DNA of 64,000 bases from Pelagibius sp. 7325 (GTDB lineage Bacteria; Pseudomonadota; Alphaproteobacteria; Kiloniellales; Kiloniellaceae): positions 66,221 to 130,220 of the forward strand of contig NZ_JBBKAH010000001.1 of assembly GCF_037652055.1 (NCBI RefSeq), in the 5' to 3' direction. Positions 7,199-36,936 of this stretch are shown here, piece by piece; position 1 is the stretch's first letter, and each line of letters begins with the position of its first letter. Below the pieces are notes generated by a model, which saw only the letters and a list, made by a program, of their open reading frames with translations, was not told the origin of the DNA and made no database searches. The translations under genes were made by a program, and so were the position numbers.

Positions 7199-7228
7199 GG
7201 CCGGAATCCCTGTCGCGGCCCTACTCTT

Positions 7229-8820: not shown

Positions 8821-8943
8821 CTTTTCCGACTCCGTTATTAGAAAAGGGAGGGGCGATTGCGTCTAATTGTTGAGAGCAAGCCGGTTATCGCGGACTCCCT
8901 GCTGCACACCGCTGCCACCCGCCACGCGGACTAAGGAAGAGGC

Positions 8944-9993: not shown

Positions 9994-10152
9994 CAAATTA
10001 AGCAACGAACCCAATATCTTACGCCCATTCCGAAAAAATCTTAGAAATCCGCCCGGCGCCAGCGTTGCCTTAGTATGGGCAGCGAATGACACGCATTCGC
10101 ATTAATGTGAAAAGCATCCGCGCGTCATGCCTGCCCCGACGAATCAACCGAG

Positions 10153-12696: not shown

Positions 12697-12720
12697 CCCC
12701 ATGAGGTCTGCCTGCCCGCG

Positions 12721-13008
12721 ATGACCGCCAAGACCGAAGGCGCCGCCATGGCCCTGCGCATAGCCGTCGGTATTGTCGGCGGCTATGCCCTGGCCTGCGC
12801 GGTGGCCATCTGGATTTCCTATGTCCTGCCCCTGGCCCGGGCCGATGCGGTCCTGACCGGTCAGCTCATCAGCTTCATCGTCTACGCCGGTGCCGTGCTG
12901 TGGGTCTTCGCCGTGCGCAGCGCGCTGCGCGCCACCGTCGGCATTTCGCTGGCGATCCTGGCGTTCAGCGCCCTCGCATGGCTCTGCGCCCCCGCGATCT
13001 CAGCGTGA
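12721..13008 (+). CDS. DUF3649-family small membrane protein
   Basis: 95-aa double-TM protein that conventionally follows TonB receptors and precedes PepSY-TM proteins. Confidence 0.55.
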   Translation: MTAKTEGAAMALRIAVGIVGGYALACAVAIWISYVLPLARADAVLTGQLISFIVYAGAVLWVFAVRSALRATVGISLAILAFSALAWLCAPAISA

Positions 13009-13021
13009 AGGAGGCCGCATC

Positions 13022-14572
13022 ATGAAGGGTGCGTTCCGCCCGTCGATGAGCTGGCTGCACACCTGGGCCGGTCTCGTTGTCGGCTGGGTACTGTTCTTCA
13101 TCTTCCTGACGGGGACCGCCGGCTACTTCGATGCCGAAATCGATCGCTGGATGCAGCCGGAGCGCCCGCTGATCGAGCAGAAGGCAAGCGCCCCCCAGGA
13201 GGCCGACGGCGCGCGCCGCTTCCTGGAACGCCAGGCAGGGAATGCCGAACGCTGGCTCATCGTTCTGTCCGGCGACCGGCTGCCCGACGTCAGGCTGTTC
13301 TGGCGCAACCCGCCGACGGCGGCCGGCGCCGCCGCGGGAGAAGAATACCTGGAGCCGGCCACCGGCAATCCCGTTTCCTACCGCAAAACCGGCGGCGGCC
13401 AGTTGCTGTACAAGATGCACTACCGCCTGCACTACCTGCCCGAGGTAGCCGCCTACTGGCTGGTCGGGCTCTGCACCATGGCGATGCTGGTCGGTATCGT
13501 AACCGGCGTGATCGTTCACAAGAGGATCTTTCGCGACTTCTTCACGCTGCGCCTCGCCAAAGGGCAGCGGTCCTGGCTGGATGCGCACAACGGGCTCAGC
13601 GTCCTCGCCCTGCCTTTTCATCTGATGATCACCTATTCCGGGCTGATGTTCCTAGTCAGTTTCTACATGGCCCCGGTTGTTGTCGCGTCCTACGGACTGG
13701 AGGGCGCCGGCCGGGGCGTTTACTTCGACGAACTGTTCGAACGGGGCACAGGCGTAGCGCGCAGCGGCGAGGCCGCGCCGCTGGCGCCCTTGGGGCCCAT
13801 GGTCGCTGAAGCGGAACACCGCATGGGCGTCGGCGCGGTCTCCTTCATCGATGTCAGCCATCCCGGCGACACCAACGCGCGGGTGGCGGTTACCGGTGGC
13901 GCGCCGCACCCCACGCGCCGGGACCAGCGTTTGCTGTTCGACGGTGTGAGCGGCAGGCTGCTCTCCGAGTCCGGGCCGCGCAGCGCGCCGCTCGTCGTGT
14001 TCGAAAGCCTGCTGGGGCTGCACGAGGGGCTGTTTGCAGGCCCCGTGCTGCGCTGGCTGTATTTTCTCTCAGGCGCCATGGGCACGGCGATGATCGCCGC
14101 CGGGCTGATCCTCTGGACAGTGAAGCGGCGCGCAAGAGCCGGCGATACGACAGGCTTTCGCCTGGTCGAGTGCCTGAACATCGGCACCCTCGCCGGGCTG
14201 CCGATCGCCCTTGCCGCCTACTTCTGGGCCAACCGCCTGATTCCCGTCGGGATCGATGACCGTGCCGCCTGGGAAGGGCACAGTTTGTTCCTCACCTGGG
14301 CCGTGCTGCTGATCCATCCCTTCCTGCGCCCGGCGGCGCGCGCCTGGCGCGAGCAACTGTGGCTCGCCGCCGCGGCCTTTGCCCTGTTGCCGGCGGTGAA
14401 CGCGCTGACGACCGCGCGCCACCTGGGAATCACCCTGCCAGCCGGAATATGGGATCTGGCGGGCATCGACCTGGCCTTCCTGACGACCGGCCTGGCCTTC
14501 GCCGCCGCCGCGCTGGCGGTGACACCGCACACAGGCTCCGCCAGGGCGCCGCGCCGGAGACCGGCCGAATGA
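13022..14572 (+). CDS. PepSY-associated TM helix protein (PiuB-like siderophore-interacting membrane protein)
   Basis: Starts MKGAFRPSMSWLHTWAGLVVGW after a GAAGGAGG RBS. Multiple TM helices, with conserved His residues in the TM segments. Confidence 0.8.
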   Translation: MKGAFRPSMSWLHTWAGLVVGWVLFFIFLTGTAGYFDAEIDRWMQPERPLIEQKASAPQEADGARRFLERQAGNAERWLIVLSGDRLPDVRLFWRNPPTAAGAAAGEEYLEPATGNPVSYRKTGGGQLLYKMHYRLHYLPEVAAYWLVGLCTMAMLVGIVTGVIVHKRIFRDFFTLRLAKGQRSWLDAHNGLSVLALPFHLMITYSGLMFLVSFYMAPVVVASYGLEGAGRGVYFDELFERGTGVARSGEAAPLAPLGPMVAEAEHRMGVGAVSFIDVSHPGDTNARVAVTGGAPHPTRRDQRLLFDGVSGRLLSESGPRSAPLVVFESLLGLHEGLFAGPVLRWLYFLSGAMGTAMIAAGLILWTVKRRARAGDTTGFRLVECLNIGTLAGLPIALAAYFWANRLIPVGIDDRAAWEGHSLFLTWAVLLIHPFLRPAARAWREQLWLAAAAFALLPAVNALTTARHLGITLPAGIWDLAGIDLAFLTTGLAFAAAALAVTPHTGSARAPRRRPAE

Positions 14573-14886
14573 CGGCATTGTCCCTGCTGCTTGCCTACGG
14601 GGGATTCGCCGGCCTTGCCCTGGCCCAGGAGCGGCACGCCCGTCAGGCCTTGCAGCGCACCCTGTCGAACCGCCTGCAGCAGTGGTTCCGCATGAGCGGG
14701 GCGCTCTGCCTGTCCGCTGCATTGATCGCCTGCATCACAGCGGCCGGCACCGCCAGCGGCATCGTCCTGTGGTGTGGCGTCCTCTCGGCTGCCGCGGTGG
14801 CACTGCTGCTGATGCTGTGCCTTGCGCCGCGCTGGTTCTTCATGCCGCCCTTGCTGCTGATCCCCTTTGCCTTCTCCGTGACATGA
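14568..14886 (+). CDS. DUF3325-family membrane protein
   Basis: MTALSLLLAYGGFAGLALAQERHARQALQ... Its ATG overlaps the PepSY stop in an ATGA junction. Usual partner of PepSY-TM proteins. Confidence 0.55.
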
Positions 14887-14924
14887 AACCGCCGGAGCCT
14901 GGCGAGAGGCCAAGGGACTAGACC

Positions 14925-16823
14925 TCACCCGCCCTTCGGATAGCCGATCTCGGCCAGGGTCGCCTTGATCTCGTCGAGGATCTGGGGGTCGTCGATGGTG
15001 GCGGGGACCTTCACCTCGGTGCCGTCGGCGAGCTGGCGCATGGTGGCGCGCAGGATCTTGCCGGAGCGGGTCTTGGGCAGGCGCTTGACCACCGCCGCCG
15101 ACTTGAAGGCCGCCACCGGGCCGATGCGGTCGCGCACCATCTGCACGACCTCCTTCGCCACGTCGGCGGGCGAGTCGGTGGCGCCGGCCTTCAGCACCAC
15201 GAAGCCGACGGGGAGTTGCCCTTTCAGCCTGTCGGCGACGCCGATGACGGCGCACTCGGCGACGTCGGGATGCGCGGCCAGCACCTCCTCCATCGCGCCG
15301 GTGGAGAGCCGGTGGCCGGCAACGTTGATGATGTCGTCGGTGCGCGCCATGACGTGGACGTAGCCGTCCGCGTCGATGATGCCGGCATCGCCGGTCTCGT
15401 AGTACCCGGGGAAATGCCTCAGGTAGGAATCGTGGTAGCGCTGCTTGGCGTTCCACAGCGTCGGGAAGCAGCCCGGCGGCATCGGCAGCTTGCCGACCAG
15501 CGCGCCGATGGTGCCGGGCGGCACCTCCTTGCCGTCGGCGTCCAGCACGCGCAGGTCCCAGCCAGGCACCGGCCTGGTTGGCGAGCCGGGCTTGACGGCC
15601 AAGTGTTCGATGCCCATGCAGTTGGCGGCGATCGACCAGCCGGTCTCGGTCTGCCACCAGTGGTCGATGACCGGCACCTTCAGCTGATCCTGCGCCCACT
15701 CCAGGGTGTCGGGGTCGCAGCGCTCGCCCGCCAGGAAGAGGACGCGGAACTTGGAAAGGTCGTAGTCGCCGATCAGCTTGCCGTCGGGGTCCTGCTGGCG
15801 GATGGCGCGAAACGCCGTCGGCGCGGTGAAGAGGCTGACCGCCCCGTGCTGCTGGATGACGCGCCAGAAGGCGCCGGCGTCCGGCGTGCCGACCGGCTTG
15901 CCCTCGTAGACCACCGTCGTCGCGCCGTGCAGCAGCGGGCCGTAGCAGATGTAGGAGTGGCCGACCACCCAGCCGACGTCGGAGGCCGACCACCAGACCT
16001 CGCCCGGGTCGATGTTGTAGATGTTCTTCATCGACCACTTCAGCGCCACCGCGTGGCCGCCGTTGTCGCGCACGATGCCCTTGGGCTGGCCCGTGGTGCC
16101 GGAGGTGTAGAGGATGTAGAGGGGATCGGTCGCGGCGACCGGCACGCACTCCTGCGGCGCGGCGGCGGCGACGGTCTCGGCCCAGTCGTGGTCGCGCCCG
16201 GCCTGCATCTCCGCGTGCGCCTGCGGACGCTGCAGGATGAGGCAGAACTCCGGCTTGTGGATCGCCATCTGGATCGCCGCGTCCAGCAGCGGCTTGTAAG
16301 GCACCACCCGCGTCGGCTCGATGCCGCAGGAGGCCGAGAGGATGGCCTTGGGCCGCGCGTCGTCGATGCGCGTCGCCAGCTCGTTGGCGGCGAAACCGCC
16401 GAACACCACCGAGTGCACCGCCCCCAGCCGCGCGCAGGCCAGCATGGCGATCAGCGCCTCCGGCACCATCGGCATGTAGATGATGACGCGGTCGCCCTTG
16501 GCCACGCCGCGCGCCGCCAGCGCGCCGGCACAGCGCGCCACCTGGTCCTGCAGCTGGCGGTAGGTGAGATGCGAGACGGTGTCGGTGACCGGGGAGTCGT
16601 AGATGATCGCCGCCTGCTCGCCGCGCCCGTCCTTCACATGACGGTCGACCGCGTTGTAGCAGGTGTTCAGGGTGCCGCCGGCAAACCAGCGGTAATAGGG
16701 CGGATCGGAATCGTCGAGGACCTTGTCCCACTTCTCGATCCAGTGAATGTCCTCCGCCGCCTTGCCCCAGAACCCCGCCGGGTCCCGCATCGCGGATTTG
16801 TAGACGTCGTCGAAACGCCCCAT
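14925..16823 (-). CDS. prpE: propionate--CoA ligase / acetyl-CoA synthetase family (PrpE-like)
   Basis: Starts MGRFDDVYKSAMRDPAGFWGKAAEDIHWIEKWDKVLDD. AMP-binding motifs YTSGTTGQPKG and core Acs-like blocks. 632 aa. Confidence 0.8.
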   Translation of the reverse strand: MGRFDDVYKSAMRDPAGFWGKAAEDIHWIEKWDKVLDDSDPPYYRWFAGGTLNTCYNAVDRHVKDGRGEQAAIIYDSPVTDTVSHLTYRQLQDQVARCAGALAARGVAKGDRVIIYMPMVPEALIAMLACARLGAVHSVVFGGFAANELATRIDDARPKAILSASCGIEPTRVVPYKPLLDAAIQMAIHKPEFCLILQRPQAHAEMQAGRDHDWAETVAAAAPQECVPVAATDPLYILYTSGTTGQPKGIVRDNGGHAVALKWSMKNIYNIDPGEVWWSASDVGWVVGHSYICYGPLLHGATTVVYEGKPVGTPDAGAFWRVIQQHGAVSLFTAPTAFRAIRQQDPDGKLIGDYDLSKFRVLFLAGERCDPDTLEWAQDQLKVPVIDHWWQTETGWSIAANCMGIEHLAVKPGSPTRPVPGWDLRVLDADGKEVPPGTIGALVGKLPMPPGCFPTLWNAKQRYHDSYLRHFPGYYETGDAGIIDADGYVHVMARTDDIINVAGHRLSTGAMEEVLAAHPDVAECAVIGVADRLKGQLPVGFVVLKAGATDSPADVAKEVVQMVRDRIGPVAAFKSAAVVKRLPKTRSGKILRATMRQLADGTEVKVPATIDDPQILDEIKATLAEIGYPKGG

Positions 16824-16949
16824 GGTCACATCGCTCCCATTTGTGGGCCCTGGACCGAGCCCTTGTTCTTTCGTGGCCGTGCCCGCCCCGGCCTTCACCC
16901 TGAGGAGAGGCCCCAAAGGGGAGCCTCATCCTGAGCCCCCAAAAAGGAG

Positions 16950-16991
16950 CCTCATCCTGAGGAGCGCCGGAACGGCGCGTCTCGAAGGACG
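16950..16991. repeat. half-copy of family-A repeat (cctcatcctgaggag-N-cgtctcgaagg), left boundary of island 1
   Basis: cctcatcctgaggagcgccggaacggcgcgtctcgaaggacg. It is the reverse complement of 21062-21104, and the same arms form complete palindromic units at 40421-40525 and 42695-42797. Confidence 0.7.
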
Positions 16992-17272
16992 AGGCAGCCG
17001 GGCTGCGCCCGGCTTCAACGTCGCGGGGGCCGCCCGCCCCCGCACCCCCGGATTTGCTTTCATTTCCGGGGGTTAGCGGTTCCAGGCAGCCAAAAGCCTT
17101 GACCCGAGAATACGTCCGAGAGCAGGCGAAAAAAAGCCTAGCGACGGAGGGGGAAGAAGGCGTTGAGATGGATCAAGGGGGTATGTTTCTACGCCGCGTC
17201 AAACTGGCCTTGGCGAGTTCAATCGACCCCGCCCATAAGCCTTTGTGGCTGTTTCAGATTCGGCGAAGCGCC

Positions 17273-19219
17273 CTACGCATACCAACTTGGTGGAACTAGG
17301 AATCTACCGCGTCTCCATTCCTCAACTATCGCACGCTCAAACCAGTCCTCATTCAAATGCGCATGATCCAACACAATCAACTGCAATCCGTTGATGACTT
17401 GACACTCGCGATGCATTAGCTCGAACAATGCATGTACAGCATGTCGATCTTTGTCCTCCAAAGGATCTAAGCTTCCTTCTTGGTCACGCTCCGCTGGATA
17501 ATGAGCTTGCGATGGCTGATCGAAAATGAGAACCCCAGGAACTGGTCGATCCCGCTTCCGAAACCACCAATGCAATGCAAGGTACGTCAACACGTGATAG
17601 CCAACCCAATTTTCACCACTACCCATTCGATTGAGTGGAATTGGACCATCATCGGTATCAGCGACGACTGTCAATTTCTTAAGATCAAGCCGCAGCGCAC
17701 TACCACTGTGCTCCAAATCCAACGCCTCAGCATAGATTGACATTTGCTTGCTGATTAAGTTGAGGTAGGTGTCTGTTTTCTGCGCAATTTCATCGATATC
17801 AACAGCCGCTTCAAGAGCTTGCACCCTACGCTTAGCTGCTTCAATCTGGGGCACTAGGTCTACGGCAACATCAGGTGGTCGGATGCCGTCTATAAATGCT
17901 CCGATACGACCCACCACCCGCGCGCGTTCCAATAGAATATCCTGCTGGGCTCTTGCCCGCTCATCTTCAGCAATTGCTCTCGCCAAAGAAGCCTGCGTTT
18001 CCACTAGCGATTTCTCTAATGCGTCGCGCTTACTCGTGAGCTGCTCAAGATGCCTTTGCAGGTGAGGCTGCTCCAGCTCTACCGATTCCAATTGCCTTGT
18101 CACATCAGAAAGCGCCGCTTCGATCTGTATTGATGCTGGCGTTGGAACAGCTAGTTCAGACTCGCAAACGGGACAAGCATGCCCTAAGTCTGCCCCAGAC
18201 TTGAACAAGCCAATCGCGCTAAGCCTAGCGCGCTGCTCGCTGCGTTCGCGAGAGTATGCGCTCTGCTCAGACATCAAGAGTCGCGCTGCTCGCAATTCTT
18301 CCGACGTCTGCTCGAGGGCCTCGCGCAAAGTCCCCTGCTCTTCGCGCAACCGATTAATAGTGGTGCCGAAGTCTGGAAGCGAGACGTTAGTTGCCAAATC
18401 GACCTGACTTGCCGCGCTTAGGACTTGCAGAGTGTCATCAACTACGACCGGCTCAAACTCCTGAGGAACGATATTGACACGCTTGCCGTCATTGATCAGC
18501 CGACGGAGCCTAACCAAGTCAACAACCTGCCGTTCTTCCTGCAGAGATGCCCGCTGCTGCAACTCCGCCAATAACTCCCTAGCCATATCGAGTTCATGCT
18601 GCCGAAGGAAGTGTTGATCATCGACCGCTCCAAGAAAGTATGGCAGGGTATCCTTAATGGCTTGCGGGATAAATTGCTCACCTTGTCGATGGAAGAGTCG
18701 TTCTCGATTATCTATTTCGTCCTGCTTCTGAAAACATAAAAAAAGAGCGTGTCGGATAGTTGCTTGCAGCGGCAAACGAGTGCCGCTTTGGGGGCGATGT
18801 TCATTTTCCGTTATGCCAACGAACCGTGTCAGCATTCGGACAATTTCACCCTCAACCACATTCGATTTGAGTTCGTCGAACACCGGCGGAGCTTCAAAGG
18901 CACCTCTTCGAATGTAAATTTCGCCACCACGATCGGTGCCGGGCCCCGGATTCTTCCGAGCAATAAACAGAACATCCTCACCCTTAACAACCTCAAGACC
19001 GAACCACGACACATAGCGCCGAACAATACCCTCAGCAACGTGACAATGACTGCGACCTAGACAGTAGTCGATAATATCAATAATTGCCGACTTTCCCGTC
19101 TTCGACTCCCCCGTAATGACGTTCAACCCCTCCATCTTAAACGGGAGGGTCCTTTGTTCCCCTTGGTGCGAGTACAGAACTATCGACTTGATTCTCATGC
19201 TCACGGTTTTATACCCCAA
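17273..19219 (-). CDS. SMC/Rad50-like P-loop ABC ATPase with coiled-coil and CxxC hook; candidate ABC-three-component (ABC-3C) system ATPase
   Basis: 648 aa. N-terminal strand plus Walker A (LNVITGESKTGKSAIIDIIDYCLG). Long heptad-rich middle with CPVCESEL. C-terminal LIFDQPSQ (Walker B/D-loop-like, DUF3732-like tail). Low GC. Confidence 0.7.
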   Translation of the reverse strand: MGYKTVSMRIKSIVLYSHQGEQRTLPFKMEGLNVITGESKTGKSAIIDIIDYCLGRSHCHVAEGIVRRYVSWFGLEVVKGEDVLFIARKNPGPGTDRGGEIYIRRGAFEAPPVFDELKSNVVEGEIVRMLTRFVGITENEHRPQSGTRLPLQATIRHALFLCFQKQDEIDNRERLFHRQGEQFIPQAIKDTLPYFLGAVDDQHFLRQHELDMARELLAELQQRASLQEERQVVDLVRLRRLINDGKRVNIVPQEFEPVVVDDTLQVLSAASQVDLATNVSLPDFGTTINRLREEQGTLREALEQTSEELRAARLLMSEQSAYSRERSEQRARLSAIGLFKSGADLGHACPVCESELAVPTPASIQIEAALSDVTRQLESVELEQPHLQRHLEQLTSKRDALEKSLVETQASLARAIAEDERARAQQDILLERARVVGRIGAFIDGIRPPDVAVDLVPQIEAAKRRVQALEAAVDIDEIAQKTDTYLNLISKQMSIYAEALDLEHSGSALRLDLKKLTVVADTDDGPIPLNRMGSGENWVGYHVLTYLALHWWFRKRDRPVPGVLIFDQPSQAHYPAERDQEGSLDPLEDKDRHAVHALFELMHRECQVINGLQLIVLDHAHLNEDWFERAIVEEWRRGRFLVPPSWYA

Positions 19220-19704
19220 CTAGATAAGATAGTTGACGTCGTACCCGCCTTTGCGAACCATCGCCCAAGCAGACGAGCGCTCGAGACACAGCCCTGGGCA
19301 TCATATGTCAGGCTATGGATGAACTTCTGTGACACAGCCAATTTTTGTGCACCGAGTTGCAAGCCGCCGTCTGTCGAAATTGTCAGAGCTCCTTTATCAA
19401 TGCAGAAGCGAACCGCTTCCTGAAGCGTCGGCCGAAGACCCTTTGCTCTCTGAACATACCCGACCATGACTTCGGGGTTCCGTTCGCGCCAAGTGTACAT
19501 TGATGTTAAGGTCGTTGAAGGGAGTGCATTCCGCGTCCTTGCATGCAATGCAATCGGCAACCCGCAAAATGGGAGCACAAATGGACAGGGAGCAGCAGTA
19601 CTTTTCTGATACTCCTTCACGAACTCGATGGCGAGCATTCCACAGAATGCCGGATTAAAAAGTGTTGCCTCTTCCTTCGGCCTAGCATCCCATTTTGGAA
19701 GCAT
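19201..19704 (-). CDS. hypothetical protein; candidate middle component of the three-gene system
   Basis: 167-aa ORF overlapping the downstream ATPase start by 19 bp and abutting the upstream gene stop. Low GC, no recognisable motif. Confidence 0.55.
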   Translation of the reverse strand: MLPKWDARPKEEATLFNPAFCGMLAIEFVKEYQKSTAAPCPFVLPFCGLPIALHARTRNALPSTTLTSMYTWRERNPEVMVGYVQRAKGLRPTLQEAVRFCIDKGALTISTDGGLQLGAQKLAVSQKFIHSLTYDAQGCVSSARLLGRWFAKAGTTSTILSSWGIKP

Positions 19705-20897
19705 TAGCCATCACCTTTTGATTTCTTCTCAGAGAACAAGGCCTGATAGTCGGGATGCCAACCCACCCTCACACTGTCTGCAAGAATCTGATACGAACCG
19801 GTACAAAGCCAACGCTCATGTCTATTTCGAAAAGGTAGCTCGCTCCGGTTGGCCCAATGATATAAGGTGCGCCCAAAAACTTTTTTTAGGTCGTCTGATG
19901 ACAAGTCAGCAGTATCTTGCTGAGCCAATGATTCACTCTGCCAGCGTTCGATAAGCGCTTCGTCATAGCGGCTCGATTCACCGTCAAGAAGGACATTCTC
20001 TCGTGCCCACGCAGTTCGTTGCGCTGAGGCTCGGTAATAGTCGCGCTTTCCCAATTCGACGACGGGGTCAGAGAGACCAACGCACTTCATCTGTTTGACG
20101 AAGATGTGGTTATCAGATGCGAGTTCCGCGTCCGGAACTTCTGAGACCTCTTGGTGGAGCATGAGATCACCCATACGAAATTGAGAAGCGATCTCGTCGA
20201 TTTTCTGTCGAAGCGACAGAAGAGATATCGGCGGTGCCGACGCATCGGTTAGAGCTTTGACGATAGTCGCAAACCACCAACCTTCCAAGTGATCGACGAG
20301 CTTTGCAACGTGTTGTGCCGGGGAAGCGAAAGCTAGTCTTTCTTCAATCTCGCTGCGCACATCAGTAATTGTTGGAGCATTATCATGGACCACAATTGCT
20401 GCAACGAGATCTTTTCTCATCTGACTCGGCAAAGACAGGAAAGCTTCCCGGGCGACTGTTGTCGCCTTGTTGCTAGATGAAGCAGCGATTCGACTCAAGA
20501 TATCGAGAGCTTCTGCTTCGTCATTATCATTGCGACCAACTCGCAACTTCGCGGCTACAGAATCTTTCGGCGCCGTAGCAGTTGTGATAATCGAAAACTT
20601 GCACTCATACAGGGCTTGAGGATTCGAAACGATCTGTTCGCTCCAGATTCGCAACGTCTTCCAGAGATCTGAGCTAGCATCCGTGAGACTAGATGCAATA
20701 GAATGATGTTTGAGTTGAAACTGCGATGTTATTCCGGCTGCAGTCTCAAAAGAGACATCGTCAAACTTTTCGACGCACAAAAGACGATTCGGGAATCGAG
20801 CGCTTTCTTCAATGGCGAGTAGAAGAGCTTCTCTGCACTGATACAGATAACCGACCATAGATGCAGCCGCGCTGTACTTAGACGGACCATTTGTCAT
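19704..20897 (-). CDS. hypothetical protein with N-terminal PD-(D/E)xK-like nuclease motif; candidate effector of the three-gene system
   Basis: 397 aa. The N-terminus GYLYQCREALLLAIE...CVEKFDDVSFE...FQLKHH resembles the E-x(n)-DD-x(n)-QxK REase-like core seen in Cap4/DUF4297-type effectors. The rest is alpha-helical and unassigned. Confidence 0.55.
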   Translation of the reverse strand: MTNGPSKYSAAASMVGYLYQCREALLLAIEESARFPNRLLCVEKFDDVSFETAAGITSQFQLKHHSIASSLTDASSDLWKTLRIWSEQIVSNPQALYECKFSIITTATAPKDSVAAKLRVGRNDNDEAEALDILSRIAASSSNKATTVAREAFLSLPSQMRKDLVAAIVVHDNAPTITDVRSEIEERLAFASPAQHVAKLVDHLEGWWFATIVKALTDASAPPISLLSLRQKIDEIASQFRMGDLMLHQEVSEVPDAELASDNHIFVKQMKCVGLSDPVVELGKRDYYRASAQRTAWARENVLLDGESSRYDEALIERWQSESLAQQDTADLSSDDLKKVFGRTLYHWANRSELPFRNRHERWLCTGSYQILADSVRVGWHPDYQALFSEKKSKGDG

Positions 20898-21061
20898 CTC
20901 AGCTGAGGCTCTTACACATGTTCGCCCAGAAAACGAACTTTATATTACCGCATTATCGCAATGGTTGTCATGGTTAATGTATGCGCCAGCTCGTTCGATT
21001 TGGGCGATCATCCTCTCGCCGCGTCGCTCTCTTGGACAGGAATTGGAAAATCAAGGTCACG

Positions 21062-21104
21062 CCGCATCCTTCGAGACGCGCCTTCGGCGCTCCTCAGGAT
21101 GAGG
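21062..21104. repeat. half-copy of family-A repeat (cgtctcgaagg-N-ctcctcaggatgagg), right boundary of island 1
   Basis: ccgcatccttcgagacgcgccttcggcgctcctcaggatgagg, the reverse complement of 16950-16991. Confidence 0.7.
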
Positions 21105-21126
21105 CTCAGGGGGTGGGGAGAGGGCT

Positions 21127-21415
21127 TTACGCCGCGGCCGGGTTGACCAGCGGGGCGCGTTCGCCGGGCCTGAGCACGGTGGCGTCGTAGGGGCGGCGGG
21201 CGAAGACGTCGCGCACCATGGGGGCGAAGAACTGCAGCGGCAGGGTGTCGTAGTCGGGGTCGAAGCTCGCCTGGTCCCAGCGCTCGCAGAAGTCGGCACA
21301 GTCGTCGAAGTAGGGGTGGCCGCGGTGGCGCTCGCGCCGATCGCGGTCGAAGCCGGCGAGGTGGTGGCCGTAGTAGTAGAGCTGGAACTCGCCGTGGCGG
21401 CGCGTCACCCGCATC
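21127..21415 (-). pseudogene. truncated 3' duplicate of the HD-domain gene at 26095-26700
   Basis: Encodes VTRRHGEFQLYYYGHHLAGFDRDRRERHRGHPYFDDCADFCERWDQASFDPDYDTLPLQFFAPMVRDVFARRPYDATVLRPGERAPLV. This matches the C-terminal ~95 aa of the full-length HD protein with 3 substitutions, and the DNA is about 95% identical over ~285 bp. The 5' end is cut off by a family-B REP element. Confidence 0.75.
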
Positions 21416-21490
21416 CCTCTCCCACGCAGGGAAGAGGAAAACCAAAAGCACCCCTCCCCTCCCTCCCCCATCAAGGGGGAGGGGGTTATA
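21413..21490. repeat. REP-like element family B (partial)
   Basis: catccctctcccacgcagggaagagg followed by ccctcccctccctcccccatcaagggggaggggg palindromes. Confidence 0.5.
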
Positions 21491-21699
21491 GCGGGGCCTC
21501 CCCCATACTCCTGCCTTCGCCGAAGCGGCTCCGGGCAGGCAGGTCGAGACGCCGCCTTCCGGCGGCTCCTCAGGATGATGTGGAAGGGGGATACGGCAGG
21601 GCCCGGGCCGCGTCCGGTTGAGGCGGGCGCGCTTCCATGATCCAATGCAGCCGGATGCGGCAGGGCGGGGGCGGCCAGGCGGAGATCCGGCGGTGAAGG

Positions 21700-22869
21700 G
21701 TGCGAATGACGGCGGGTGCGGCTTGCCGCGCGGGCGGCGCGGTCGCAGCGGAACGCCCGCGTTCCGGGGCGCGGCGATTGCGTAGCAGGCCGATGCGGCC
21801 GGCGCGGGCGCTGCTGCTGGCGATCGGGACGGCCTGCGGCGCCGCCGGGTGCGCGACGCCAGCGGCGCCGCTCTATTCCACGGACACGGCGCCGGTCGCG
21901 CTGGTCGATATCACGGGCGCCGGGGGCCGCGACCTGCGCGCGGCCTTCCGGGCGGCGGCCTGCCGCCGCCTGCCGGCGGAGGGACCGGCCTGCGACGAAG
22001 TCGTGCTGCGGCTGGCGGGCGAGGCTCCCGAGGCGGCACCGGCGGACGCGGCCCCGGCAGCGCCGCCGGAGGTGACGGAGCGGGAACTCGCCCAGCGCTT
22101 TCGCATCGGCTTCGTGCCCGGGCTGTTCGCCCAGTGCTTCGACGACTACTCGCGCGCCTTCGGCGACGCGCAGAGCGCGATGGAGGCAGCGGGCTTCACC
22201 GCCGCCTATTTCCAGGTGCCGGGACGCAGCAGCGCCGCCCGCAACGCGGACCGCCTGGCGGCGATGATCGCCGGCCTGCCGCCGGACCCCCGGCCCTTCA
22301 TCCTCTTCGCCCACTCCAAGGGGCTGATCGACACCTTGGAGATGGCGCTGCGCCATCCCGAGGCGCTGGGGCAGGTCGCCGCGGTCGTCGGCGTCGCCGC
22401 CGCGGCCAACGGCAGCCCGCTGGCCGACATCCAGTCGACGCTGTACCGCAACGGCGTCGCCGGCTTCCCGCTGCCCGGCTGCGCGCCCAGCGACGGCGAA
22501 GAGATCGAGGACCTGCAGAGAGACCGCCGCCTGGCCTGGTGGCAGCGCCACCGCAAGGACATCACGGTGCCGCTCTATTCCCTGGTCGCCGCGCCGGAGG
22601 CCGACAGCCTGTCGCCGCTGGTCCGCTATTCCTACGACCGCCTGGCGCGCATCGATCCGCGCAACGACGGCAAGCTGCTGTGGTACGACCAGATCATGCC
22701 GCAGAGCGGCCTGCTGGGCTATGTGAACGCCGACCACTGGACCATCGCCTTCGATGCTTACCGCGAGATCGATGCCCTGGCCCTGACGTTCGAGGACCGG
22801 GTGCCGCGCGGCATCCTCATCCGCGCCGCCACGGAGGTGGTCGCGGCCTCGCTGGCCGGCGGCGAATAG
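21700..22869 (+). CDS. putative lipoprotein, alpha/beta-hydrolase (serine esterase/lipase-like)
   Basis: Signal/lipobox region ALLLAIGTACGAAGC and a nucleophile-elbow-like FAHSKGLID block. The probable start is the internal M at about 21793. Confidence 0.55.
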   Translation: MRMTAGAACRAGGAVAAERPRSGARRLRSRPMRPARALLLAIGTACGAAGCATPAAPLYSTDTAPVALVDITGAGGRDLRAAFRAAACRRLPAEGPACDEVVLRLAGEAPEAAPADAAPAAPPEVTERELAQRFRIGFVPGLFAQCFDDYSRAFGDAQSAMEAAGFTAAYFQVPGRSSAARNADRLAAMIAGLPPDPRPFILFAHSKGLIDTLEMALRHPEALGQVAAVVGVAAAANGSPLADIQSTLYRNGVAGFPLPGCAPSDGEEIEDLQRDRRLAWWQRHRKDITVPLYSLVAAPEADSLSPLVRYSYDRLARIDPRNDGKLLWYDQIMPQSGLLGYVNADHWTIAFDAYREIDALALTFEDRVPRGILIRAATEVVAASLAGGE

Positions 22870-23012
22870 CGGCGGCTGGTCGCTGATTAAGCGGGGATAC
22901 TTTGTCGCGCCCTACGCGCCGAGAAGCTGTCCGAGTTGCGGGGAGAAGGTTGCGTAGGCCGAGGCGCCAGCGTGCGACAGCGGCAGCTTGGAAGGACTGA
23001 GGACTTCGATAA

Positions 23013-23375
23013 ATGGAACACATCCGCGGCATCGGGAAGCTGAAGAAGTTCTCCGAGTCCCTGACGCTCTGCCGCTTTAGTACGCTTCGGCTGTTCACCC
23101 TGGATCACCAGGGACGCTATGCCTTTATTCACTGCCGCCTGAAGACTGAGCGCTTCGACCCGCCGCTGGCCATGGACCTGCGTTTCGACGGCGTGTCGAG
23201 CGTTCAGATCAAGGGCGTGGGCGGCGGTATCCTCTCCCAGATCACCGGGTTCGCCGTCGTGGACATCAGTGCCAAGGGTTGGGAAGGCATCAACTGGGAA
23301 GCCATCGACTATGAGGAAGGCAGGATCCGTTGGTACGCGGAAGACTTTCAAATCCTCGATGTGGTGCGGGTTTGA
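23013..23375 (+). CDS. hypothetical small protein (orphan)
   Basis: 120-aa ORF with moderate GC sitting between two family-B REP elements. No recognisable motif. Confidence 0.35.
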   Translation: MEHIRGIGKLKKFSESLTLCRFSTLRLFTLDHQGRYAFIHCRLKTERFDPPLAMDLRFDGVSSVQIKGVGGGILSQITGFAVVDISAKGWEGINWEAIDYEEGRIRWYAEDFQILDVVRV

Positions 23376-23387
23376 GGGGCTAAGGGC

Positions 23388-23500
23388 CCCCTCACCCCGA
23401 CCCTCTCCCCGCTGGGGAGAGGGAGTCCCCCTCACCCAGCTGCGCCTAGGCTCGTTCCTCGCCAAGGCTTCGCATCCCTCTCCCGCGAGGGGAGAGGGGA
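23388..23500. repeat. REP-like element family B (tandem/double copy)
   Basis: ccctcaccccgaccctctccccgctggggagaggg followed by ccctcacccagctgcgcctaggc...gccaaggcttcgcatccctctcccgcgaggggagagggg. Confidence 0.7.
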
Positions 23501-23594
23501 ATCATCCCTGGCCAGCAGATCGTCATGGTTCCGGCGGAAAAGCGCCGCAATCGTCCGCCACAAAAACGCTGGAGACTTTCAAAGGGGGGGGGAA

Positions 23595-24098
23595 ATGCGG
23601 AGACATGCGGTCCTGCTTCTGCTGGGGCTCGGCCTGCCGGTGCTGCTGGCCGGCTGGATCAGCCTGGATTACACCACGGAGAGCGGCGCGGCCTGGTTCG
23701 CGGAGAACAGGCGCGACCTGCTGCGGCTGAACGCTGCTCTGCTGGCACGGCCGCAGATCACCTGGGTCGAACCGGCCCTGCGGCTTCAGTTCATACCCAA
23801 TTCGAAGAACTTTTCCGCCGACGACCTGGCGGCGTACCGCGAGGTCGAGGTCATGACCAAGGACCTGGGGGTTATCAATATCCAAGCGGCCCGCGTGGGC
23901 TCGCAGATCGACGGCGAGTTGATCACGATCCGCTATCTGCTGAAGCGCAGAGGATTCCTGTTCACCAGCAGCGACGCATTGATCGTCGCGTACACTCCGA
24001 ATAGCAAATACCTCGCGCACTGGCAGGAAGAGCCGGGGGCACAGATCGTCCCGCTGGATGTCGAGGGCTGGTACGCGATCGTCGATCACGACGACTGA
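23595..24098 (+). CDS. hypothetical exported protein
   Basis: N-terminal signal peptide MRRHAVLLLLGLGLPVLLAG. 167 aa, no known domain. Confidence 0.5.
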   Translation: MRRHAVLLLLGLGLPVLLAGWISLDYTTESGAAWFAENRRDLLRLNAALLARPQITWVEPALRLQFIPNSKNFSADDLAAYREVEVMTKDLGVINIQAARVGSQIDGELITIRYLLKRRGFLFTSSDALIVAYTPNSKYLAHWQEEPGAQIVPLDVEGWYAIVDHDD

Positions 24099-24118
24099 GG
24101 GTCTCCCGGATCCTCGAG

Positions 24119-24200
24119 CCCCCTCACCCAGCTTCGCCTATTCGCGCACGCGCGCTAAGGCTGCGCATCCCTCTCCCACGCTGGGGGAGAGGGGTTTGGA
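24119..24200. repeat. REP-like element family B
   Basis: cccctcacccagcttcgcctattcgcgcacgcgcgctaaggctgcgcatccctctcccacgctgggggagagggg. Confidence 0.7.
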
Positions 24201-24201
24201 C

Positions 24202-25155
24202 CTACTGCCCTTCCGGGAGGGCCTGGAGGTTGTAGAGGGCGCGCAGCAAGGGTTCGTTGGAAAGCACGCCCATGCCGCCGAACCAGCGCTGGAAGATCGG
24301 CAGGATGTCGCGCGAGCGGTAGAGCGCGGCCAGGGTGCGGTCGACGGCCAGCAGGAAGTCGGGCGAGTCGCGGCGCACGGCGAGCGCATAGGGCTCATAG
24401 GAGATGAGGCGGTTGAGCAGCGTCAGCTTTTCCGGCTCGCGCGCGCGGCCGATGAGGTTCACCAGCAGGATGCGGTCGCCGAAGAAGGCGGCGATCTGCT
24501 TGTCCTCCAAGGCGGCGAGCCCGGCGTCGTAGCCGTTGAACAGCACGACCTCCACATCGACGAGGTTCAGGCGGACGATGGCCTCGCGCACGGCGTCCTC
24601 CGCCGTGGTGCCGCCCACCACGCCGACGCGCCGGCCGTTGAAGTCCACCGCCGCGCTGAAGTCGAGTTCGTCGTGCACCAGGAACTCGATGCCGGTCGCG
24701 AAGGTCAGCAGCGAGAAGGCGACCTGCTCGCGGCGCTTCAGGGTTTCCGTCGTCGAGCCGCAGAGGATGTCGATGTCGCCGTCCTGCAGCGCCTGGAAAC
24801 GGGTCTCGGCCGTCACCGCGCGGTATTCGACGGCGAGATCCGGCAGGTTCAGGCTTTGCTTCAGGTCCTCGGCCACCGCCAGGCAGAGGTCGATGGTGTA
24901 GCCGACCACCGCCCCGGGGGCGCCGTGGTGCAGCCCGGTCGCCTCGGAGACCATGAAGGAGAACGGCACCGACTGCTCGCGGTGGCCGACCACCAGGGTC
25001 TTCGTATCGACGATTTTGCGCAGCGTCGGGTCGAGAGACGGGTCAAGCGTTTGCGCGGCAGCGCCGGGCCCCATCGCGAGCGCGGCGAGGGCGAGCAGCG
25101 CGGCGGCCAGGGGCGCGCGCCGTCGCTGTGCCGCGATGAAGCCCAAGCGCGCCAT
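24202..25155 (-). CDS. ABC transporter substrate-binding protein (amino-acid family, SBP_bac_3)
   Basis: Signal peptide, then a periplasmic type-II SBP fold (VGHREQSVPFSF..., GVVGGTTAEDAV...). Confidence 0.75.
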   Translation of the reverse strand: MARLGFIAAQRRRAPLAAALLALAALAMGPGAAAQTLDPSLDPTLRKIVDTKTLVVGHREQSVPFSFMVSEATGLHHGAPGAVVGYTIDLCLAVAEDLKQSLNLPDLAVEYRAVTAETRFQALQDGDIDILCGSTTETLKRREQVAFSLLTFATGIEFLVHDELDFSAAVDFNGRRVGVVGGTTAEDAVREAIVRLNLVDVEVVLFNGYDAGLAALEDKQIAAFFGDRILLVNLIGRAREPEKLTLLNRLISYEPYALAVRRDSPDFLLAVDRTLAALYRSRDILPIFQRWFGGMGVLSNEPLLRALYNLQALPEGQ

Positions 25156-25177
25156 GATCAGATGGCCTCCGCCATGG

Positions 25178-25838
25178 TCAGAAAGCCTCCGCCAGGGCCG
25201 TGTTCACCAGGGCATAGAACATCTGCTGGCCGGCGTTGATCGAATAGACCGGCTTGAAGCGCTTGTGCTCGCTGTCCGGCACGACGCGGCCGTAGAGATT
25301 GTCGAGCACGAACTGGCGCCCGTCGTCGATCTCCATCACCGCGACGGCATGGCCGACGGGTTTCGAGCCGCCGGCGCTCACCTGGCCCGCGACCATCCAG
25401 ATCTTCTCGATGTCGAAGCCGCCGAAGTAGGCCGACACGATGTAGACATGCGCGTAGTCGTCGCAGTCGCCGTAGCCGCGGGCGATGGTCTCCCCCGGTG
25501 TCGACCAGACGTCGCCGCGTTCGGACTGGTATTTCACCAGGGAGAAGGTTTCCTTGTAGAAGGCCTTCATCTGGGCCTCCTGCGGCTGGTCCTCGATGGT
25601 CGTCAGGAAGGCGCGCCAGGCACGCACGTCGGCCGAGCTGCTCTTGGCATAGCCCTGGTATTCCTTCAGCAGGCGGTTGTAGTACTGGTGCTGCTGGGTC
25701 TTGTCGGCGAAGGAATTCGGCAGCTTGAAGATGACCTCGTAGCGCGCCTCGGCCGCGTTGAAGGACGCGCCGGCGAGGACCAGCGCGGCGGCCAGCGCCG
25801 TGATGCTTCCGGAAGACGTCCGCTTTACCCAGGACATG
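25178..25838 (-). CDS. transglutaminase-like cysteine peptidase (BTLCP family)
   Basis: RGYGDCDDYA catalytic Cys block, with downstream conserved His (VGHAVAV) and Asp (VLDN). N-terminal signal peptide. Confidence 0.8.
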
Positions 25839-26094
25839 ACGGCACCTCCGCTGCGACACTGCCGGGAAGGAGAGGCGATCACCTGTTACCGCTGCGGGTC
25901 CGGCGGCGGGACCGGGTGCGCGCACACGCGCGATGGTCCGGGAGGCCGGCGCCGGGCCGGTCCCGCCATCTTAGTCCGCCCGGAGTTCGCGTCCAGGCTT
26001 TGTTTTCAACGAAGGCTACGCGGATGGGGTGCAGGGTGGGAGACGCCCTCCCCCGGGGGCGGGCGGCGGGCGCCCGAAGCGGGAGCGGAAGGGC

Positions 26095-26700
26095 CTAGGG
26101 GCCGACGGTCACCAGCGGGGCGCGTTCGCCGGGCCTGAGCACGGTGGCGTCGTAGGGGCGGCGGGCGAAGACGTCGCGCACCATGGGGGCGAAGAACTGC
26201 AGCGGCAGGGTGTCGTAGTCGGGGTCGAAGCTCGCCTGGTCCCAGCGCTCGCAGAAGTCGGCGCAGTCGTCGAAGTAGGGGTGGCCGCGGTGGCGCTCCC
26301 GGCTGTCGCGGTCGAAGCCGGCGATGAGGTGGCCGTAGTAGTAGAGCTGGAACTCGCCGTGGCGCCGCGTCACCCAGGTGCACTGCTCGCGCACGAAGGG
26401 CTTCAGGATCGCCGCGGCGTAGTCGGCGTGGCTGAAGGGCGCATGGATGTCGCCGATGTCGTGCAGCAGCGCCGTCACGATCCAGTCGGTGTCGGCGCCG
26501 TCGCGAAAGGCGCGCGTCGCGGTCTGCAGCGAGTGGCCGAGGCGCGTCACCTTGTAGCCGGAGATGCCGTCCTCCAGTGCGGCCATCGCCGCCAGCAGGC
26601 GCTCGGCGGTGTGCCGGTGGTGGTCGTACACCAAGTCGGTGAGGTAGGCGTATTCCTCCTTGGTGCCGTCCTTCATCTGCGTGAAATTGACGGATTCCAT
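26095..26700 (-). CDS. HD-domain metal-dependent phosphohydrolase/oxygenase-like protein
   Basis: Starts MESVNFTQMKDG. HD motifs are DHHRHTAERL, LLHDIGD and HADYAAAI. Its 3' end is duplicated at 21127-21415. Confidence 0.75.
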   Translation of the reverse strand: MESVNFTQMKDGTKEEYAYLTDLVYDHHRHTAERLLAAMAALEDGISGYKVTRLGHSLQTATRAFRDGADTDWIVTALLHDIGDIHAPFSHADYAAAILKPFVREQCTWVTRRHGEFQLYYYGHLIAGFDRDSRERHRGHPYFDDCADFCERWDQASFDPDYDTLPLQFFAPMVRDVFARRPYDATVLRPGERAPLVTVGP

Positions 26701-27542: not shown

Positions 27543-28046
27543 ATGGCAGCGGACAACGCCGGAGCGATCGCGGTGCGGCCCGTGCGGCGGGAGGATCACG
27601 CCCAATGGCTGGCGCTGTGGCATGCCTACAACGTGTTTTATGGCAGGTCCTGGGGGCGGAACGGCGAGCCGCCGGTCGAGCCCGAGGTGACGGCGGCGGC
27701 CTGGGCGCGCTTCTTCGACGACTCCCAGCCGCTGTGGGCGCTGGTGGCGGCCGAGGCAAGCGCCGGGGGTGACGAAGGCAGGCTGCTGGGCTTCACCCAT
27801 TACCTCTTTCACCTGGGCACCAACTTTATCCAGCCGCTCTGCTACCTGGAGGACCTCTTCACCGTGGAGGCGGCGCGCGGCCGCGGCGTCGGGCGGGCGC
27901 TCATCCAGGCGGTCTGCGACGCGGCGCAGGCGGCGGGTTCGGCGCGGGTCTACTGGCAGACCCACGAGAGCAACGCCACGGCCCGGCGGCTCTACGACCG
28001 CGTGGCGGAGCGCCCGGGATTCATCATCTACCAGCGGGATCTGTAG
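27543..28046 (+). CDS. GNAT family N-acetyltransferase
   Basis: Motif A RGRGVGRALIQAVCDAAQAAG and a C-terminal Y..RL..F block. Confidence 0.8.
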   Translation: MAADNAGAIAVRPVRREDHAQWLALWHAYNVFYGRSWGRNGEPPVEPEVTAAAWARFFDDSQPLWALVAAEASAGGDEGRLLGFTHYLFHLGTNFIQPLCYLEDLFTVEAARGRGVGRALIQAVCDAAQAAGSARVYWQTHESNATARRLYDRVAERPGFIIYQRDL

Positions 28047-28062
28047 CGGCGGGGCGGCGCGC

Positions 28063-28092
28063 TTCCCTCTCCCAGGGGGGGAGAGGGCTCCC
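28063..28092. repeat. REP-like family B tail (ccctctccc-N-gggagaggg hairpin)
   Basis: cttccctctcccagggggggagagggctcccc. Confidence 0.5.
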
Positions 28093-28236
28093 CGGCCCTG
28101 CGGCAAAACGTCCCTGCGACCTTGTCGCAACTCGTGGCGGGCGGGGGTGGCGGCTATATCCCGGTCACTGGACCGCAGATCCTGACTGGCAACGAACAAG
28201 AAACCATCCCCCCTAACCGCAAGGCCTTAGATTTCG

Positions 28237-28950
28237 ATGCGTCACCTTCCCTATGCCGTGGGCGGCTTCATGCTGCTGCCCTTCGCGGTCTGGCTCGTCT
28301 TCGAGCTGACCATCCTGCCGGGCTCGACCGTGAACCTGGACCTGCCGCTGGTGGCCGCCCTGACGGCGACCTGCGTGCCGGTGCTGGCGTGGTTCTTCCT
28401 GGTGAACCTCGGCTTCCTCGCCAACTCCATGGGCGGCGCCGACGAGTTCGCGCGGCCCGAGGCGCGCAGCGTGCGCCTGCTGATCGCGCTGTTGCCGTGG
28501 ATCTCCCTCCTCGGCAGCCTCCTGAGCGTGCCCTACCTCGCCGCCGAGGGCTATCCGCCGGCACTGCTGGCGCTGCCGCCGGCGGTGGGTGCCGCGATCT
28601 TCTTCGCCATCCGCTCCGGTGAGAAAGCGCGCAACCAGGAGCGCGGGCGTCTTAAGGATTTCGAGGGCCGGGCGGCGGTGGCGCGCGCGGCGGCGCCGAA
28701 GGCGCGCCCCGGTGCGCTGAAAACCGCCGGGCGGATGCTGCTGGGCCTGCTCTACGCCGTGCCGCTGGCCGGCTGGCTGCTGCAGGACGCGGTCGAGGGC
28801 AGCGGCAGCGCCAAGGCCTTCTTCGCCTTCAACGGCTTCCTGCTGCTGGCCGCGGCGATCGCCGTATTCGGCTACCCGGTGCTGATCGTCGCCGCGCTGA
28901 CCGCGGTGCCGGTGATCTTCGCCGGCCTCTTCGTGCTGACCTGGAGCTGA
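28237..28950 (+). CDS. hypothetical polytopic membrane protein
   Basis: 237 aa with 6-7 hydrophobic helices and no conserved motif. Confidence 0.55.
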   Translation: MRHLPYAVGGFMLLPFAVWLVFELTILPGSTVNLDLPLVAALTATCVPVLAWFFLVNLGFLANSMGGADEFARPEARSVRLLIALLPWISLLGSLLSVPYLAAEGYPPALLALPPAVGAAIFFAIRSGEKARNQERGRLKDFEGRAAVARAAAPKARPGALKTAGRMLLGLLYAVPLAGWLLQDAVEGSGSAKAFFAFNGFLLLAAAIAVFGYPVLIVAALTAVPVIFAGLFVLTWS

Positions 28951-28960
28951 CGGGGGCTCG

Positions 28961-29040
28961 CCCCCTCACCCAGCTTCGCCTAAGCGCGATCTTAGATCGC
29001 GCCAAGGCTGCGCATCCCTCTCCCACGCAGGGGAGAGGGG
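28961..29040. repeat. REP-like element family B (between convergent genes)
   Basis: cccctcacccagcttcgcctaagcgcgatcttagatcgcgccaaggctgcgcatccctctcccacgcaggggagagggg. Confidence 0.7.
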
Positions 29041-29043
29041 ACA

Positions 29044-31113
29044 TCAGGCGGCCTTCACGGACTCCAGGAAGTCGTGCACCTCGCGCTGCAGCTCGCCGGC
29101 CTGGGCGGTCAGCGCGTCGGCGGCGCTGAGCACCTGGGCGGCGGCCGAGCCGGTCTGCGCGGCCCCGTCGTTCACGCCGCCGATGTTGGCGGAAACGTCG
29201 GAGGTGCCGGCGGCGGCCTGCTGCACGTTGCGGGCGATCTCGTTGGTCGCGGCGTTCTGCTGCTCCACCGCCGCGGCGATCGCGGAGGCATTCTCGTTGA
29301 TGCTGGCGATGATGCTGCGGATGCCGTCGATGGCGCTGACCGCGTCGCCGGTGGCCTCCTGCATGCCGCCGATCTGCTTGGAGATCTCCTCGGTGGCCTT
29401 GGCGGTCTGCGTCGCCAGTGATTTCACCTCGCCGGCGACGACGGCAAAGCCCTTGCCCATCTCGCCGGCGCGCGCCGCCTCGATGGTGGCGTTCAAGGCC
29501 AGCAGATTGGTCTGCTCGGCGATGTCGGAGATCAGGCCAATGACCTCGCCGATCTTCTGCGCGGCCTCGTCCAGGCCCTTCACCCGCTGGGTGATGTTCT
29601 CGGTCTCGCTCACCGCCTTGCCGGTGTAGTCGTTCGACTGCGCGACCTGGCGCGAGATCTCGCCGATCGACGACGACAGCTCCTCGGCGCCCGACGCGGC
29701 GGTCCGCACGTTGGAGGAAGCCTCCTCCGCGGCGCCGGTCACCACCTTGGCCTGGGTCGCCGTCTCCTCGGCGATGGAGGACATCTTCCGGGCGACCTCG
29801 CGCATCTCCGCGCAGGAGGCCGTGACGGCGCCCAGCACCTGCTTGGACTTTTCGTCGAAGCCCTTGCAGAAAGCCTCGATCTGGCGGGCACGCGCCTCAC
29901 GGCCCGCCTGCTCCTTCTGCTGGTCGGCGGCCAGCTCGCGCGCCTTCACGCCGTTCTGCTTGAAGACTTCGACGGTGCCGGCCATGACGCCGATCTCGTC
30001 GCGATCGTCGGCGTGCGGCACGGCGACCGAGAAGTCGTCGGCGGCCAGCTTCTGCATGGCGCCGGCCAGCGAGGCGATGCGCCCGGAAACGTTGCGCCCG
30101 ATGTAGAAAGCCAGGCTGATGGCCGCGGCGAAGGAAACCAGGGTGACGATGCCGAGCAGCAGCACGCCTTCGCTTTTCTTCCAACGCAGGTCGGCCACGC
30201 CCGCCGTCATCGCGGCGTGGATCGCTTCCTCGGCGATGTCGGCGCTCTCGATGAGGCCCTCGAAGGAGGCATCGAAAATCTCGTCGGCCTCGCTGCCGGC
30301 GGCGCCCACCTGCACGACCGAGCGGGCGCGCTCGACGGCGAGGTCGCTCAGCTCCTGAATGGCGGTCAGCAGCTCGGAGGCACCGGCCATGCCGTAGGTG
30401 TCGCCGAGCTGGGCGACGAGGGCCTGAGCTTCGGCGAAGTTGCCGGTCGCCTCGGCGATGTCCTCGCCGGCGTCGCCGCCGAGCACCTCTTCCACCATCA
30501 GGTGGCCGTTGGCCAGCAGGTAGCGCGCGGTGCCGGCCAGGCGCTGCGCCTCGGCACTGTTGGCCAGGAAGCCGCCGTTGGCACCCTCGGCGATGCCGGT
30601 GATGAGGGAATCGTAGAGCGCGTCGAAGCGCTCGTCGGCGCCGCTGCCGACGCCCTGGCGCTCGGCCAGCGAGGCGTGGCGGGTCTGCGCGACGGCGACG
30701 AAGGCGTCGAGATCCTTCAGCAGGGTATCGACGTTCCGGCGCACCACCGGATCGGTGCTGGCGTAGAAGCGGCCCTCTTCGTTCTCACCGCCGTTGAGGA
30801 TCGCGTTGGCATAGAAGCGCGCGTCCTCCAGCAGATCCCACACGACCTGAATGTCCTCGCCGGCGTCGCCGGCCATGATCTCCTCGAAGATCAGGTGGGC
30901 CCCGGTGGCGGACAGCTTGATCTCCATCGCGGCGTCGCCCAGCGGTGCCAGGCGTTCGGCGACCAGCACGCCGTCCTCGCCCAGGCTGTTGGCGGTCCAG
31001 CCGCCGATGAGTCCGGCCAGGCCGGTCAGCACCGCCAAGACGAAAAAAGCGGAGAAGGTCTTGGCCTTGACGCTCAGGCTCTTCAGAAAATGCGATGCTT
31101 TGGCGGCAGACAT
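29044..31113 (-). CDS. methyl-accepting chemotaxis protein
   Basis: N-terminal TM and periplasmic helical sensor, a second TM, HAMP, then the highly conserved MCP signalling domain ([31 protein letters not shown]). Confidence 0.9.
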
Positions 31114-31429
31114 GGCGGCACTCACTCCTCGAGCCGCGCTGGTCCCCTCACGCGGCAATTTGTCGCAAAGAAGTGCCTAGAGCTAACACCAGAGCATTAA
31201 CAGAGATTGAGTCGGCCGCCAGGAAATGAATGGGAATAAGCGCGAAGCGCCGCTTCGGATTTCTTCTTATCTAATTCGGCACTTCTGCTTGATCGTCTTT
31301 AAACTGGAACGACAAAGCGTGTTGTTCTGGGGATGAGATTTGGACGCGCTGGAAGACGGGGCCGGGATCACCTTCCGTCGGATGATCCCGGCCCCGCTGG
31401 CAATCCGGTGAATCGCCGGCCGCTGGGGT

Positions 31430-36926: not shown

Positions 36927-36936
36927 ATTATCGCTC

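Follow-up and report, generated by a model that had tools for sequence, protein, structure and literature searches.

A short open reading frame of 93–95 aa in Pelagibius sp. 7325, annotated as a hypothetical protein, is best explained as a non-functional remnant of the 3′ end of an HD-domain gene. The remnant comprises the 3′ end of an HD-gene allele with the native gene tail and the REP element downstream of it, and it stands at the ancestral position. The arrangement around it would have arisen by recombination between two haplotypes of a cargo hotspot. The probability of this reading is put at roughly 0.78. The window referred to below is the whole stretch of 64,000 nucleotides that was analysed, and its relevant features are listed in Table 1.

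A pairwise alignment, proposed in an earlier note on this DNA, confirms the duplicate. Positions 21146–21410 (copy A) align with positions 26111–26375 (copy B) as an ungapped direct repeat of 265 nt (8 mismatches, 97.0% identity, blastn E-value = 2e-126). The spacing of the copies is 4965 nt, and each is coding sequence of the minus strand. The earlier note had placed the duplication correctly, but its extent and identity (285 bp, ~95%) are replaced by 265 nt at 97%. Within the tract the copies differ by three residue changes (H/L125, L/I126, R/S133) and four silent changes. Beyond it the C-terminal ends are wholly unlike, i.e. the fragment ends in ...PLVNPAAA* and the intact gene in ...PLVTVGP*. 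The three differences previously counted over 95 aa thus hold for the tract and not for the tails. A shuffling test detected no similarity of the copies past the breakpoint, and the 64-kb window contains no pieces of the HD gene other than copies A and B.

Two other descriptions of the repeat were considered and set aside. An older, longer duplication that was homogenised by gene conversion is without support, as the shuffling test gives no significant homology past the tract. A REP-to-REP tandem duplication of ~476 nt, suggested by a repeat termed D19, was rejected; the two REP-A units are ~80% alike, as against 97% for the duplicated tract (tract D).

Table 1. Features of the HD–acs region, in order of position in the window.
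Feature	Positions	Strand	Remarks
acs/propionyl-CoA synthetase-type gene	14925–16826	-	conserved far flank of variable slot
Lamassu (ABC-3C) defence island, low GC	17181–21060	-	fills variable HD–acs slot
LmuB, SMC-like ATPase	17273–19219	-	Lamassu
LmuC/MC3, middle component	19201–19704	-	Lamassu
LmuA/CTD7, effector	19704–20897	-	Lamassu
Native tail NPAAA (stop 21127–21129), short REP remnant, REP-A unit (21061–21107)	21061–21145	-	ancestral downstream flank of HD gene
Fragment open reading frame	21127–21414	-	95 aa from ATG at 21414, or 93 aa from GTG at 21408
Copy A, duplicated tract D	21146–21410	-	HD codons ~108–196, 5′-truncated; 97% to 26111–26375
Truncated REP-B element	21411–21437	+	distal hairpin only; forms junction J2 with fragment
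Segment M, 4700 nt	21411–26110	.	missing at this locus in relatives; four accessory genes and REPs
M: REP cluster	21411–21590		
M: lipoprotein/esterase-like gene	21790–22869	+	
M: REP-B copies	~23427–23504 and ~24117–24197		
M: 167-aa secreted protein	23595–24098	+	
M: solute-binding protein	24202–25155	-	
M: LapG/transglutaminase-like protease	25178–25837	-	
Novel C-terminal tail TVGP and stop codon of intact HD gene	26095–26110	-	from edge of segment M; junction J1 at ~26110/26111
Intact HD-domain gene, 201 aa (WP_340115262.1)	26095–26700	-	MIOX/PhnZ-like type
Copy B, duplicated tract D	26111–26375	-	inside intact HD gene

The protein of the intact gene scores narrowly above the Pfam HD threshold (23.1 against 22) and falls below the NCBIfam equivalog cut-off for PhnZ/TmpB-type HD-domain oxygenases (32.8 against 214.6 bits). 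Its likeness to MIOX and to PhnZ/TmpB is confined to the H...HD metal site at residues 47–85, and the match to PhnZ in the PDB covers this H...HD region only. The C-terminal region of the full-length protein, which is the counterpart of the fragment, has no family match in Pfam or NCBIfam. Copy A begins at HD codon ~108 and therefore lacks the H...HD site. The original description of a duplicated 3′ fragment devoid of the N-terminal HD motif is borne out. The TVGP tail is found only in Pelagibius sp. 7325 and is absent from every other member of the HD cluster. It is read off the inserted block, where close relatives have the tail NP(D/A)AA.

Relatives were drawn from the 90% cluster of the HD protein, which provides three useful lineages. 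These are L082–L084, a Kiloniellaceae metagenome-assembled genome (MAG) with about 85% nt identity; L085, whose HD protein has 95% aa identity; and L086–L088, with 80% aa identity in HD. All three have one HD gene each and share the order acetyltransferase, HD, variable cargo, acs, SDR, Ldh_2, and in L085 a response-regulator gene lies upstream, as in the window. Whether related genomes carry a single or a double copy had been raised as a check, and the answer is a single copy. In blastn alignments, the HD sequences of the relatives stop at position 26111 when aligned to copy B. With copy A, the alignment continues through the fragment and past it, and takes in the HD 3′ end, the stop codon and the REP-A downstream in each relative (L085 shows 93% identity over 21410–21071, and L082 reaches 21115). 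Homology to the relatives resumes at 17180, in the acs upstream region. Because the relatives match the flank of the fragment and not that of the intact copy, the fragment and its left flank mark the ancestral end of the HD gene, still at its original position beside the variable HD–acs slot. The empty site, a second point to be checked, shows the HD end and REP-A, then the variable slot and acs, with M absent.

Pattern scans of metagenomes gave one match, an 86% relative with a single HD gene. A search of genome contigs with the HD protein yielded no second HD piece, and the distant homologues found in it (72% identity or less; Paracoccaceae, Mesorhizobium) have no neighbours in common with the window.

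As judged from gene content, the HD–acs slot is a hotspot for variable cargo, and the slot occupied by the Lamassu island is separate from M. In Pelagibius sp. 7325 the slot is filled by an island of 50% GC, in which an SMC-like ATPase (LmuB), a middle component and an effector are found together in one operon. This combination identifies a Lamassu system (Lamassu and ABC-3C are equivalent names in the literature). The cargo in L082 (positions 10766–12786) is a 583-aa protein without a Pfam or other family match. In L086/87 it is a Band_7 protein together with a PDC-S06/AAA_13 candidate defence protein (L086 positions 2084–7384), and L088 has a variant of the latter cargo (positions 1637–6163).

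A 7-nt sequence, ATCAAGG, is present at both edges of the Lamassu island (17172–17178 and 21050–21056). One copy is in the conserved acs-side flank and the other is just inside the island, beside REP-A. The pair could be a target duplication or an att core, or it could be due to chance, for which a rough estimate is a few percent.

Segment M is lineage-specific DNA flanked by the duplication. The loci of the relatives show no counterpart of M except REP copies. The best non-self homologue of its largest gene, the lipoprotein gene, is in L081 (67%), where the context is different and not syntenic. Pfam and NCBIfam searches of M gave no integrase or recombinase, and PADLOC, a defence-system library, gave no matches in it. 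The composition of M is host-like (GC 0.62–0.72), and it carries the REP-B family of the genome itself. Insertion of the low-GC island had been offered earlier as one cause of the duplication and truncation, but the DNA between the repeats is M and not the island.

The differences between the two copies were compared with those found among strains. Across the tract there are 8 differing sites between copies A and B, 7 between B and L085 and 11 between A and L085. The divergence of the two copies is thus similar to that between two strains of the population. At each of the three residue differences (125, 126 and 133) both states segregate among 13 close relatives, and the NPAAA tail of the fragment is also found among them. 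Of the 8 nucleotide differences, four are clustered in a stretch of 7 nt, in which copy B agrees with L085 at 4/4 sites and copy A with L082 at 3/4 (sites 71, 74 and 77), and at site 72 copy A is unique, with C in place of the A present in all others. Since the residue differences match polymorphisms in close relatives, they point to two natural alleles that were joined by recombination, and not to decay of a copy. The polymorphic sites could instead be recurrently mutable positions. A former view, that the fragment is ancestral at every difference when polarised with distant homologues, was dropped; closer relatives show polymorphism at these sites, with some of the changes on each copy, and the result was an artefact of outgroup choice.

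The joint between the fragment and the REP element (J2) is at 21410/21411. Complete REP-B copies are ~80 nt (23427–23504, 24117–24197 and 28960–29046). The remnant at J2, 96% identical to positions 29012–29038, has only the distal hairpin, which places the joint inside a REP. The REP did not insert into the HD gene. The fragment had been described as cut off exactly where a REP-B element begins. REP-B is indeed at the point of truncation, but as a distal hairpin and with the joint within it. The interpretation given in the earlier note is supported in part. With a full-length parental REP-B, microhomology at J2 would amount to 1 nt. The sequence TCACCC at J2 matches the 5′ box of REP-B; this match would demand an extra internal deletion.

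REP-A and REP-B are short palindromic units that are repeated intergenically well above chance, and they are present in the loci of the relatives as well. REP-A family sites are at 16907–16995, 21061–21107, 21540–21580, 40420–40515 and 42695–42795. The normal form of REP-A is an inverted pair, i.e. ATCCTTCGAGACG...CTCCTCAGGATGAGG, an AT-rich loop, and then the reverse complement. Two single REP-A units in opposite (divergent) orientation bracket the Lamassu island. In enterobacteria, REP elements occur at the join points of REP-mediated duplications. The novel joint described here is also inside a REP, in a REP-rich intergenic region, but its partner is a coding sequence and not a second REP.

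On the minus strand, the present order is: HD 5′ part, D, new tail, M, truncated REP-B, D, native tail, REP-A, Lamassu, acs. This is the configuration of an insertion-duplication remnant. There are two direct copies, one in an intact open reading frame and one truncated; the fragment is unconserved as a separate gene and is without the catalytic motif; and the single uninterrupted HD gene of the relatives has flanks that match the outer flanks of the repeat pair. Two parental haplotypes would suffice to produce it. One would carry HD with its native tail, REP-A, Lamassu and acs, and in the other block M would begin 5 codons before the HD stop. One new illegitimate joint (J2, between the inside of REP-B and HD codon ~108) and one homologous exchange would be needed. 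A circularised piece consisting of D and M could have entered by a single crossover in D (insertion-duplication). Alternatively, a linear piece extending from inside HD through Lamassu to acs could have been integrated, with its homologous end at acs and its illegitimate end in REP-B. The two routes are indistinguishable because both need the same two parental haplotypes, neither of which has been observed; no relative with M or the TVGP tail is present in searchable collections. In one version of the model the Lamassu island may have arrived together with the fragment.

The first route has direct experimental precedent. In E. coli, DNA with one-sided homology was mostly integrated in circularised form by a single crossover, duplicating 109–950 bp of the homologous locus (PMC3240628). 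A single-crossover (Campbell-type) insertion-duplication likewise leaves an insert flanked by a target duplication of a few hundred bases, in which one copy completes the gene and the other is truncated. The present case differs in that it would be a natural event without a vector, the donor circle is hypothetical, and the intact copy has gained a new 4-residue tail from the inserted DNA. In homology-facilitated illegitimate recombination (HFIR), as defined in PMC3240628, a homologous end and an illegitimate joint bring foreign DNA beside a conserved anchor gene. An integration of the HFIR type would account for the position of the fragment next to the Lamassu island. HFIR however usually deletes recipient DNA and uses 3–10 bp of microhomology, whereas the visible result here is a duplicated flank.

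Other explanations of the arrangement were weighed against recombination between haplotypes. In a purely intragenomic origin, M would have been copied into HD from another place in the genome, and the 265 nt re-copied, by replication template switching or by REP/RAYT-associated illegitimate recombination within one chromosome; the 8 differences would have arisen later by mutation. Such an origin would fit the REP-B at J2, the REP clusters that line the whole region, and the host-like composition and REP-B content of M. It is considered unlikely, though worth keeping in mind. All three residue differences are standing polymorphisms, even those on the supposedly unconstrained fragment; the four clustered nucleotide differences match alleles of the relatives at most of the sites; and a second copy of M is absent from the 64-kb window. 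M could also be regarded as a small integrative element, site-specific for the HD 3′ end and equipped with a replacement 3′ end, so that the repeats are attL and attR. The topology is indeed that of islands in gene ends, where an intact gene at one end and a displaced 3′ fragment at the other form direct repeats around accessory DNA. In such islands the element restores the gene end; here the replacement stops short of the stop codon, and copy B ends in a tail and stop codon of unrelated sequence. The length of the repeat (265 nt), the host-like composition of M, its lack of integrase, recombinase and PADLOC matches, and the failure to find a similar element elsewhere make this origin very improbable. 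An assembly artefact, i.e. a collapsed or chimeric repeat, might be feared in a draft contig of 432 kb. With 8 differences between the copies, unique sequence running on from both sides of each, and one flank of each orthologous to relatives, an artefact has practically no likelihood.

A different question is whether the 93–95-aa open reading frame is a genuine small gene that is expressed and encodes the C-terminal module of the HD protein as a stand-alone unit. The frame is open, it has both an ATG and a GTG start with GGGAGAGGG directly upstream of the former, and databases hold entries of similar length. NCBI's annotation pipeline (PGAP) calls it as a protein, and the GTG-start form is identical to WP_340115256.1 (‘hypothetical protein’, RefSeq, Pelagibius sp. 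7325). The ATG (21414–21412) is wholly REP-derived. Against a functional gene, no sigma-70-like promoter was detected upstream of the fragment, the exact product is confined to the contig of this strain, the H...HD motif is missing from it, and relatives are without such a gene at this place. Almost all database proteins of this length come from contigs of 1–5 kb (contig-end partials). One short homologue (P0011), which is on longer contigs, represents the 3′ half, still open, of an HD pseudogene that decayed in place, with stops and an internal deletion. The short homologues thus being partials or decayed pseudogenes, and the exact frame being confined to one genome, no intact and conserved small gene emerges; such a gene is what the earlier note had named as contrary to its reading. 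A functional small gene is accordingly held to be most improbable, and the fragment is taken as a non-functional remnant of the HD-gene 3′ end. Its expression is possible, as the frame is still open with a possible start and a Shine-Dalgarno-like sequence, and on these signals the fragment may be expressed. There is also a slight chance that it is not inert. The REP has given it a start codon and a ribosome-binding-like sequence, and the Lamassu operon follows directly downstream on its strand. It might therefore act as a translated 93–95-aa protein or a transcribed leader, recruited either as a partner or an antagonist of the HD enzyme or in control of Lamassu expression.

As a remnant left by recombination, the fragment is an ordinary scar of the genome and belongs to a known kind of gene remnant. 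It is mis-annotated as a hypothetical protein and would be better annotated as a pseudogene remnant. It is also a footprint of the HD–acs slot as a cargo hotspot in Pelagibius/Kiloniellaceae genomes. In Pelagibius sp. 7325 two cargo blocks, the accessory block and the Lamassu system, are stacked there. Stacking would have proceeded via recombination anchored on the conserved flanking gene, with a duplicated piece of the flank left behind. The 4.7-kb segment M is prone to loss, because the 265-nt direct repeats can recombine, deleting M and restoring a single gene.

Several other segments of the window are absent from one or more of the relatives. A second low-GC island at 35218–39337 is absent from L082; it contains a DRT9-type defence reverse transcriptase (36937–38499), an SbcB-like exonuclease (35520–36926) and a 262-aa open reading frame without a family match. 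The region 8030–14923 (~6.9 kb), between the SDR gene and acs, is absent from L082 and L086 and is another lineage-specific insertion. The block at 28026–33614 is absent at this position in L082. It carries a chemoreceptor gene (29044–31158), a Band_7 protein gene (31430–32761) and a tRNA-Asp gene (33017–33092), and the last adjoins a tRNA-like sequence at 32948–33014 (Rfam, 58.8 bits; not called by ARAGORN). In L086 the Band_7/tRNA part of this block is found directly downstream of HD, and it has therefore moved relative to HD.
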